A program made the position numbers and the translations under genes. Positions 6,736 to 9,132 of a stretch of 64,000 nt of DNA are shown in pieces. The notes under the pieces were generated by a model. It had not been told where the DNA came from, did no database searches, and saw only the letters and a program-made list of their open reading frames with translations. The stretch is from Candidatus Bathyarchaeota archaeon (GTDB lineage Archaea > Thermoproteota > Bathyarchaeia > 40CM-2-53-6): assembly GCA_963733055.1 (NCBI GenBank), contig CAVTBR010000001.1, positions 1,344,001-1,408,000 on the forward strand, written 5' to 3'. The first letter of the stretch is position 1. The number at the start of each line of letters is the position of its first letter.

Positions 6736-6840
6736 GCCCTGGTCGTTCAGTGGTCTAGGATGACGGCCTGTCACGTCGTCGACGCGGGTTCGAATCCCGC
6801 CCAAAGGAGCAGCCTGAAACTCTCCTGGCGAGGGGCGCCA
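6736..6840 (+). tRNA. tRNA-Asp(GTC) with a 29-nt BHB intron (6804-6832) in the acceptor stem at 68/69, encoded CCA
   Basis: GCCCTGG pairs perfectly with CCA|GGGC after intron removal; anticodon loop CTGTCAC; T-arm GCGGG TTCGAAT CCCGC. Confidence 0.92.
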
Positions 6841-7063: not shown

Positions 7064-8023
7064 GTGTTAAATTTGATTCCAGGCACTGAAACAGATGTAG
7101 TTGCAGCAATTGAGAAAGTAAGCCCCGCAGTTGTCTCAGTCGCTACGTTGCGGGTTATTCAAGAAAGCATGTTCGACGCCATCCCAGTTTGCGGAATGGG
7201 GTCGGGAATAATTTTCGATTCAAACGGTGGAATCCTCACCAACCACCATATCGTTGAAGATGCGGAAAGGGTCGAGGTTCTTACGCCGGATGGTAAGAAG
7301 TTCCGCGGAGAGGTGTTGGGATCCGATTCGATGTCTGACGTGGCTGTGGTGCGAGTTGATGGAGAAAACTTACCCGCGGTTAAGCTTGGTGACTCTGACA
7401 AGTTGAAGGTGGGGCAGGTCTCAATCGCCATCGGAAACCCCTACGGGTTCATGTTGCCGGGGCCGGCGGCGACGGTTGGAGTGATCAGTGCGTTGAAGCG
7501 GCATATTCACGTTGAGGAGCGCATGTACGAGGACCTGATTCAGACGGACGCTTCCATCAACCCTGGTAACAGTGGTGGCCCGCTCGTAGACAGTTCGGGG
7601 ATGGTGGTTGGAGTTAACACCGCCAACATTCCGTTCGCGCAAGGCATCGGATTCGCCATACCCATCAACGCCGCGAAGAGGATAGCGAAAGAAATCATTG
7701 AGCATGGTCGTGTGATTCGACCGTACGTTGGCATAGCCGGTTTGACCCTGACACGAGAGATTGCGGAATCATACAATCTCCCCTACGAACAGGGAGCTCT
7801 TGTTGTGAGGGTAGGGAGAGGAAGCCCAGCGAAGAGGGCCGGGGTGGCGGCGGGAGATGTGATCCTGGAAGCCGACGGTAAGGCTCTCAAGGGTTGGGAA
7901 GACCTACAACACATACTCCAAGATAAGAAGGTGGACGACACCCTCGAGTTACTCATCGGCCGCGACCGAGAACAGGGAAAAGTACACGTAAGGCTGGAAG
8001 AAGCCAGCAAGGTCATCGCTTAA
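7064..8023 (+). CDS. HtrA/DegP-family serine protease with PDZ domain
   Basis: GSGII, TNHHIV, DVAVV, QTDASINPGNSGGPL; C-terminal PDZ; no signal peptide. Confidence 0.92.
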   Translation: MLNLIPGTETDVVAAIEKVSPAVVSVATLRVIQESMFDAIPVCGMGSGIIFDSNGGILTNHHIVEDAERVEVLTPDGKKFRGEVLGSDSMSDVAVVRVDGENLPAVKLGDSDKLKVGQVSIAIGNPYGFMLPGPAATVGVISALKRHIHVEERMYEDLIQTDASINPGNSGGPLVDSSGMVVGVNTANIPFAQGIGFAIPINAAKRIAKEIIEHGRVIRPYVGIAGLTLTREIAESYNLPYEQGALVVRVGRGSPAKRAGVAAGDVILEADGKALKGWEDLQHILQDKKVDDTLELLIGRDREQGKVHVRLEEASKVIA

Positions 8024-8654: not shown

Positions 8655-8825
8655 CCGGTGACCTTCCCTTCAAGTTTCTTCTGAGACGTTCTGAATTAAG
8701 GCTAGCCGCACGTTCAGATCCTCAACCTCACGACGCCTGAAAACAGTTAGGGAAACTGCAGATATTTTCCAAGCAAAGAGAACTTGCAAAATGCTTTTGA
8801 TAGCGTCCGGGAGTCTCAGGAGCTA

Positions 8826-8985
8826 GGGCCCGTAGCTCAGTCAGGTAGAGCATCGGTGACGCCGTGTGGCGTTGGTGAGGCTTTTACCTCTGGGCGATTC
8901 GAACCCATGGGAAGCCACCCGAAAAGCTCGGCTTAGAAGCCTTCTTGGGGAAGGGTCCCGGGTTCAAATCCCGGCGGGCCCGCCA
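8826..8985 (+). tRNA. tRNA-Lys(TTT) with three BHB introns (8857-8879, 8887-8916, 8923-8952), encoded CCA
   Basis: Exons join to 77 nt: GGGCCCG TA GCTC AGTCAGGTA GAGC A TCGGG CTTTTAA CCCGA GGGTC CCGGG TTCAAAT CCCGG CGGGCCC G CCA. Confidence 0.92.
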
Positions 8986-9132
8986 CGACCGTGTCGCTGA
9001 ACCGGACCCACGGCGTGAAGCTGAAACTAAAGTTAGCCTCTCTACTCCGCTCTGAGCAACAGGCGACAGTAGGTGTCGGACCATTGTTACAAAGTGTAAG
9101 GCTAAGATTCGTTGAAACGAGAAGCGGATAGT

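Follow-up and report, generated by a model that had tools for sequence, protein, structure and literature searches.

A tRNA-Lys(UUU) gene in four pieces, with three short introns in the anticodon arm, in a member of the Bathyarchaeia from the peat and soil group

What kind of gene lies at positions 8826 to 8985 of the window, as we call the whole 64,000-nucleotide stretch of Bathyarchaeota DNA analysed here? The ends of a tRNA with a 7-bp acceptor stem are recognizable at 8826 and 8985 on the plus strand, and about 90 surplus bases are found between its 5' and 3' parts. An earlier note on this DNA, made from the letters, had proposed a tRNA-Lys gene with anticodon TTT and with three introns clustered around the anticodon arm. 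Indeed, window positions 8826-8985 (+) are a real archaeal tRNA-Lys(UUU) gene in four pieces with three short introns that are spliced by proteins, and the map of three introns and four exons given in the note was borne out base for base. It is very probable that the gene is functional and that it specifies a precursor of about 160 nt with three bulge-helix-bulge (BHB) introns at tRNA positions 30/31, 37/38 and 43/44; its transcription and its cleavage in vivo are what we infer here. The genome to which the window belongs comprises 2.88 Mb in 3 contigs.

The Rfam tRNA model recognized 8826-8982 with 44.1 bits (cut-off, 29), and in the resulting alignment a block of 62 nt in the anticodon arm stayed unaligned and 31 nt were placed as an insertion in the variable region. 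ARAGORN in default mode missed the gene, its sole call in the window being an uninterrupted tRNA-Asp at 6736-6808, and in intron mode the gene was labelled tRNA-Phe(aaa). Exon 1 (8826-8856 (+), 31 nt) covers tRNA positions 1 to 30, that is, the 5' strand of the acceptor stem, the D arm, A26 and positions 27 to 30 of the anticodon stem, and is followed by intron 1 (8857-8879 (+), 23 nt) at position 30/31. Exon 2 (8880-8886 (+)) is a micro-exon of only 7 nt, GCTTTTA, which covers positions 31 to 37 and carries the anticodon TTT at 8883-8885; intron 2 (8887-8916 (+), 30 nt) then interrupts the tRNA at the canonical position 37/38. Exon 3 (8917-8922 (+)) is a second micro-exon, the 6-nt ACCCGA, with A38 and the 3' strand of the anticodon stem (positions 38 to 43), and it is separated by intron 3 (8923-8952 (+), 30 nt; position 43/44) from exon 4 (8953-8985 (+), 33 nt; positions 44 to 76), which contains the variable loop GGGTC, the T arm, the 3' strand of the acceptor stem, the discriminator G8982 and an encoded CCA at 8983-8985. 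Both micro-exons read as had been claimed, and the A26-G44 pair suggested for the spliced product agrees with the sequence, in which A occupies position 26 and G position 44.

Marck and Grosjean reportedly described the BHB motif in 2003 as a helix of 4 bp with a bulge of 3 nt on either side, each bulge being cleaved after its second base. We assigned all splice sites by this rule, and it placed intron 2 at the canonical position 37/38, which served as an internal check. Motif 1 has the central helix CATC (8851-8854):GGTG (8874-8877), the bulges GG/T and AG/G (the slash marks the cut) and an inner 6-bp hairpin (8858-8863:8868-8873). Motif 2 has the central helix CTTT (8881-8884):GAAG (8911-8914), the bulges TA/C and CC/A and an interrupted inner helix (8888-8894:8904-8910). 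The central helices of introns 1 and 2 are 4/4 paired, and that of intron 3, ACCC (8917-8920):GGGG (8947-8950), has three standard pairs plus an A.G at its outer end; its bulges are GA/A and AA/G, and two inner helices follow, AAG:CTT (8924-8926:8944-8946) and GGCT:AGCC (8930-8933:8938-8941). All three central helices, including the one A.G, were found where they had been predicted, and so were the inner helices of intron 3. We grade the motif of intron 3 as relaxed, because its central helix contains an A.G or A.C pair in 15 of the 21 genes compared below.

If the three inserts are introns, their joint removal should give a regular tRNA. Eight splice forms were tested, and only the form from which all three had been removed gave a full-length, intron-free ARAGORN call, a tRNA-Lys(ttt) of 77 nt, which confirms the identity and the anticodon that had been proposed. 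We also wrote a blind solver without use of the proposed coordinates; it lists BHB-bounded segments and tries sets of up to five of them whose removal leaves a cloverleaf. On the 157-nt gene, its top solution consisted of exactly the same three introns, with a score of 20.0, and this score was reached by 1 of 300 dinucleotide shuffles of the gene interior. Some product accepted by ARAGORN was obtained in 134 of the 300 shuffles. Thus, acceptance alone is weak evidence, and we relied instead on the comparison with relatives, which gives the strongest support.

Orthologs were searched for in 22 genomes of the same genus. A full ortholog was parsed in 20 of them and one more was cut by a contig end, whereas one genome, 80% complete, yielded no full ortholog, only a match to the T arm; together with the gene of the window, the comparison set comprised 21 genes. 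All 21 contain three introns at identical places, and after splicing every one was called tRNA-Lys(ttt) by ARAGORN. The exons differ at 6 of 1480 compared positions: the micro-exon GCTTTTA is invariant in 21/21 genes, exon 1 varies at one D-loop position in 3 genomes and by T27C in 1 genome and is otherwise invariant, and CCA is encoded in 20/21 genes. The introns are only 56 to 97% identical to those of the window gene, with 17 to 21 distinct sequences per intron. In other words, the exons are conserved, while the introns vary with changes that preserve their helices. The central helix of intron 1 is 4/4 paired in 20 of the 21 genes, and its inner helix is 100% paired with four of the five pairs changed on both sides. 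In intron 2, the central helix is 4/4 paired in 21/21 genes and the inner helix is 92.9% paired, with three pairs varying on one side and one on both. Intron 3 keeps CCC:GGG in every gene, the fourth pair being A.G in 13, A-T in 6 and A.C in 2, and the AAG:CTT helix is 100% paired in the genus alignment. Taken over the MAFFT alignment, the BHB structure was 94.9% paired, compared to at most 53.2% when the partners were slid, and both-side changes were found at 8 BHB pairs, a count that none of 500 shuffles reached. Moreover, the 21 cloverleaf pairs are 100% paired in the 21 sequences, including the pairs that bridge introns. One relative (L020) has T27C together with A43G, by which U27-A43 becomes C27-G43; this compensatory pair spans all three introns, and its two bases are 69 bases apart in the gene. 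The proposal that the three inserts are BHB introns and that the product is a tRNA-Lys is upheld by the cloverleaf, the blind search and the ortholog comparison.

When the genome was searched by BLAST with the two terminal exons, a second full copy of the gene was not found. In one relative (L022), a partial second copy is present at 1482-1615, about 1 kb downstream of the full gene; it runs from the end of exon 1 through introns 1 to 3 to the CCA and is without the 5' strand of the acceptor stem and the D arm. Similar second matches occur in two other relatives. The partial copy may be a remnant, or an integrated element may have left it behind as a duplication.

Only three contig sets from peat metatranscriptomes shared 5 to 7% of sampled words with the sequence. 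On 8700-9100, they contained unspliced copies from relatives, in pieces corresponding to 8834-8985, 8843-8985 and 8874-8985 and with 5 to 11 differences; one of these unspliced copies bears a D-loop insert in front. A single joint from 8845 to 8953, with 46 other letters between, was rejected: it comes from another tRNA, one with the same acceptor and T arms. Neither the copies nor the joint bear on splicing or expression.

The third junction had been marked in the earlier note as possibly off by one base, and we settle it at 8922/8923 and 8952/8953, with the variable loop GGGTC. In this register, both cuts follow the second base of a 3-nt bulge in 21/21 genus genes. With the junction moved leftwards by one base, the product stays the same in this genome but becomes a different one in four relatives that have G or T as the last base of the intron, and therefore 43/44 is the only register that fits all genes. 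A shift by one base to the right (8923/8924 and 8953/8954), as raised in the note, would leave the gene model intact and produce A44 and the variable loop AGGTC. Position 8923 is indeed an A, and the cloverleaf would still form. However, this register requires CCCG:GGGA as the central helix, with one pair lost and the central helix broken, it moves both cuts away from the boundary between second and third bulge base that holds for introns 1 and 2 and in 21/21 orthologs, and it conflicts with the ortholog lacking intron 3, which has G and not A at position 44. We consider the right shift very improbable.

A further reading is that only the introns at 30/31 and 37/38 are spliced and that 8923-8952 stays in the tRNA as a long, class-II-like variable arm, which the note had itself named as a possibility that would speak against its model. 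The insert forms a stem-loop that is kept while its sequence varies, as would be expected of a variable arm; the imperfect central helix in 15/21 genes and the Rfam alignment, in which the insert appears in the variable region, point in the same direction. A variable arm would, however, not need a 3' end complementary to the anticodon-stem strand, as given by CCC:GGG in 21/21 genes, nor 3-nt bulges on both sides, and the form retaining the insert received no intron-free ARAGORN call. In addition, tRNA-Lys is a class I tRNA. The ortholog from the same order that is without intron 3 (L029) reads ACCCGG and then directly GGGTC; therefore, the variable loop is GGGTC, and retention of the insert as an arm is unlikely, in our estimate extremely so. 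A pseudogene, decaying or silent, that keeps its inserts and leaves AAA codons to be read by another gene is in our estimate extremely unlikely as well. In its favour, spliced RNA did not turn up, the locus is missed or mislabelled by default tRNA finders, and many tRNA candidates of the genome are without a plausible parse. Against it, the exons are near-invariant in 21 genomes while the introns drift, one exon change is compensatory across the introns, the promoter-like box and the CCA are conserved, BLAST with the terminal exons revealed no other full copy in the genome, and the splicing enzymes are encoded.

The preferred reading, a functional gene with three BHB introns, calls for a promoter and for a splicing apparatus. 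A candidate promoter element is present at 8786-8802 (+), where a purine-rich, BRE-like stretch (8786-8793) is followed by the TATA-like box CTTTTGATA (8794-8802), which ends 24 nt upstream of the mature 5' end. As read by eye, a T-rich box lies at equal distance upstream in 21/21 genus orthologs, with differing flanks. A promoter role of the element is suggested by these sequences.

The genome encodes two EndA paralogs, both of which scored above the Pfam cut-offs for PF01974 and PF02778. The closest matches to the alpha paralog (185 aa), at 3.6e-39 to 5.2e-28, were catalytic alpha subunits from A. pernix, S. tokodaii and P. aerophilum; its best solved relative is the A. pernix alpha subunit (3.6e-39). 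It has the Tyr/His/Lys catalytic motifs, in residue-for-residue alignment with A. pernix alpha, and one of its loops aligns to the crenarchaeal specificity loop and has Lys at both conserved positive positions, K44 and R46 in the A. pernix enzyme. This loop, in which K44 is the conserved Lys of the A. pernix enzyme, confers cleavage at non-canonical intron positions according to a passage in PMC3241643. The second paralog (188 aa) is without the catalytic His at the aligned site, and by its predicted subunits the endonuclease is of the two-subunit (alpha-beta)2 type. The ligase RtcB is present as well, as a 507-aa open frame with 576.8 bits for PF01139. All relatives of the endonuclease are labelled as Bathyarchaeia/Bathyarchaeota or are mislabelled bins from soil and peat. 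The gene for the structural (beta) subunit is located at C1:1338756-1339202 (-), about 5 kb before the start of the window and about 14 kb from the tRNA-Lys gene; the catalytic subunit is encoded on a different contig from the tRNA-Lys gene, at about 228.6 kb of C3.

How might such a precursor be processed? Transcription would start just upstream of 8826, and the three BHB motifs, each a 4-bp helix flanked by two 3-nt bulges, would form in the RNA. The (alpha-beta)2 endonuclease would then cut six bonds, each after the second bulge base, and RtcB would make three joints, the product being a tRNA of 77 nt, encoded CCA included. The motifs compete for bases: CTTT (8881-8884) is part of the outer helix of motif 1, where it pairs with GAGA (8847-8850), and of the central helix of motif 2, and CCC (8918-8920) is used both in the central helix of motif 3 and in the anticodon stem by which motif 2 is closed. 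Between motifs 1 and 3, on the other hand, there is no overlap. Because CTTT and CCC are shared and motifs 1 and 3 are free of mutual overlap, we propose that introns 1 and 3 would leave first and the canonical intron 2 last; with such an ordered removal, the 7-nt and 6-nt micro-exons would never be free.

Ensemble energies agree weakly with this order. As calculated from constrained ensemble energies, formation of motifs 1, 2 and 3 in the unspliced RNA would cost 7.6, 20.8 and 3.9 kcal/mol, respectively. Once intron 1 is removed, the modelled cost is 11.9 kcal/mol for motif 2 and 3.9 kcal/mol for motif 3, and removal of introns 1 and 3 leaves motif 2 at 13.8 kcal/mol, which is no better than removal of intron 1 alone. 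In 4/21 genes, the outer helix that motif 3 forms with the end of intron 2 is not maintained, and this counts against the order, which is inferred only from the overlapping helices and the energy estimates. Without constraints, the precursor has a minimum-energy fold (-79.8 kcal/mol; z, -3.49) from which the three BHB motifs are absent and in which intron 2 is paired with the T arm, and in the free RNA all three motifs have a low modelled probability. Since the fold does not reproduce the set of BHB motifs, it is not taken as support. The loop of intron 2, GATTCGAACCC (8895-8906), is complementary with one mismatch to the T arm of its own gene (8960-8972), and this drives the computed fold away from the cloverleaf. 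The same loop looks like a T arm in antisense, and by BLAST it has matches at many tRNA loci. The complementarity is probably incidental, because it is not kept in most of the relatives.

In 12 of the 21 genus genes (L005-L007, L009, L010, L015-L017, L019-L022), the tRNA-Lys(UUU) contains a fourth BHB intron of 24 to 27 nt in the D loop, after position 17. It was also found at the same site in three outgroups of the same order that belong to other families (L023, L024 and L029). This intron has TCAG:CTGA as its central helix and GATCC:GGATC as its inner helix, the latter with one compensatory change. There are near-identical genes that differ only by the D-loop intron (L004 versus L006; L012-L014 versus L019), and this patchy occurrence suggests that precise loss was recent. 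With the site shared by the outgroups, precise loss, including in the lineage of the genome studied here, is the simpler reading.

A second gene with four introns was encountered in the genome itself. A 180-nt stretch at C3:546747-546926 (-) (loci L077/L089) parses as a tRNA-Pro(GGG) with four BHB introns of 30, 21, 21 and 32 nt between exons of 15, 8, 10, 15 and 28 nt. The spliced product agrees at 60/76 positions with the uninterrupted tRNA-Pro(UGG), which is thereby the most similar tRNA, compared to 45 to 58 for 18 other parsed tRNAs. Fifteen genus genomes were searched for the layout, and it recurs in 10 of them with a length of 177 to 181 nt; the ortholog parses are 11 sequences read by eye. 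A tRNA-Pro(GGG) with four introns in this genome is likely.

Nearly all tRNA genes of the genome are interrupted, as 28 of the 30 end-anchored tRNA candidates are 90 to 180 nt long. The Rfam tRNA model found 13 tRNAs in the whole genome and recognized 1 of 12 other long candidates; therefore, it is unusable for counting the introns of long candidates. ARAGORN in intron mode mislabels many tRNAs of the genome. The solver gave plausible full parses for 14/30 candidates, tentatively with no intron in 2 genes, one in 4, two in 3, three in 4 and four in 1. The other 16 candidates gave no plausible parse, 12 because ARAGORN accepted no solution and 4 because the accepted product had an implausible length, and given these 16, the genome may contain a divergent second tRNA-Lys(UUU) gene. 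The intron census is tentative because the solver was permissive in the shuffle control.

With four introns in the tRNA-Lys of 12 relatives and in the tRNA-Pro(GGG) here, one may speculate that the genus goes beyond a ceiling of three introns per gene and that the mutually exclusive motifs, by forcing an obligatory order in which 37/38 comes last and the micro-exons stay unreleased, constitute a built-in pathway for tRNA folding and quality control instead of a series of independent excisions. We put this forward as a possible but rather doubtful interpretation.

The surroundings of the tRNA-Lys gene are ordinary. An uninterrupted tRNA-Asp(GTC), which is among the few intron-free tRNA genes of the genome, lies 2 kb upstream at 6736-6808 (+). 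A gene for an HtrA-like protease is at 7064-8023, a 177-aa frame is found on the minus strand near the tRNA-Lys gene, and genes for a PNPOx-like protein and a zinc dehydrogenase are located downstream. A 66-aa frame on the minus strand over the tRNA-Lys gene itself had no family match.

How does the gene compare with known systems? Passages in PMC4033280 and PMC8450103 give three introns as the maximum in archaeal tRNA genes, found chiefly in Thermoproteales, and 30/31 is listed in a part of PMC4090602 as a non-canonical intron site that is also the split site of tRNA-Lys(CUU). The multiple-intron tRNA genes of Thermoproteales (Pyrobaculum, Thermofilum and Caldivirga; Sugahara et al. 2007/2008, as cited in those passages of PMC4033280 and PMC8450103) are cut by an endonuclease of the (alpha-beta)2 type that has the crenarchaeal specificity loop, the type encoded in this genome. 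A further likeness to the tRNA-Lys gene is described in a passage of PMC8450103, where introns are so close that one may need to be removed before the next motif can form. However, the host here belongs to Bathyarchaeia of the peat and soil group and is not a hyperthermophilic crenarchaeon, its three introns lie within 14 mature nucleotides of the anticodon arm and leave exons of 7 and 6 nt, and the set of three introns is genus-wide, with parts of it kept in other families of the order. Also, unlike in the intron transposition of Thermoproteales, no similar copies of the introns are present elsewhere in the genome, where BLAST found chance matches of 10 to 13 nt only, plus one 17-nt match to intron 3.

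Soil Asgard archaea have introns in 92 to 95% of their tRNA genes, as stated in a part of PMC11291895, but these intron-rich sets (Atabeyarchaeia and Freyarchaeia) belong to a different phylum from the host of the tRNA-Lys gene. The nuclear tRNA-Ile(UAU) of the red alga Cyanidioschyzon merolae likewise has three BHB introns, including one at 37/38, and a passage in PMC3728597 describes RT-PCR by which the two outer introns were seen to leave before that at 37/38, the order that we propose here. According to the same passage, however, the tRNA is eukaryotic, and its introns interrupt the D stem and the T loop instead of being clustered on the anticodon arm. The split tRNA-Lys(CUU) of Nanoarchaeum equitans and Staphylothermus belongs to the same amino-acid family and has the same break at 30/31, but is made from separate genes joined in trans, as given in a part of PMC4090602, whereas the gene here is single and contiguous. 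In our literature search, no report of tRNA introns in Bathyarchaeia/Bathyarchaeota was found, and no report of an archaeal tRNA with four introns either, the search having covered sources other than the per-gene intron counts of Asgard archaea that belong to PMC11291895. The three-intron tRNA-Lys is a known but rare layout, in a lineage where it is undescribed, with an unusually tight clustering of the introns.

Because default tools miss or mislabel genes of this kind, the tRNA counts and the estimates of completeness or codon capacity for these genomes will be wrong. The 7-nt and 6-nt exons between overlapping motifs make the gene a compact natural substrate for probing the order in which endonuclease and ligase act, and with the four-intron genes of the relatives, the number of introns known from a single archaeal tRNA gene would exceed its present maximum. 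Extreme fragmentation of tRNA genes is not confined to hyperthermophilic Thermoproteales but is also a stable, genus-wide trait in Bathyarchaeia of peat and soil.
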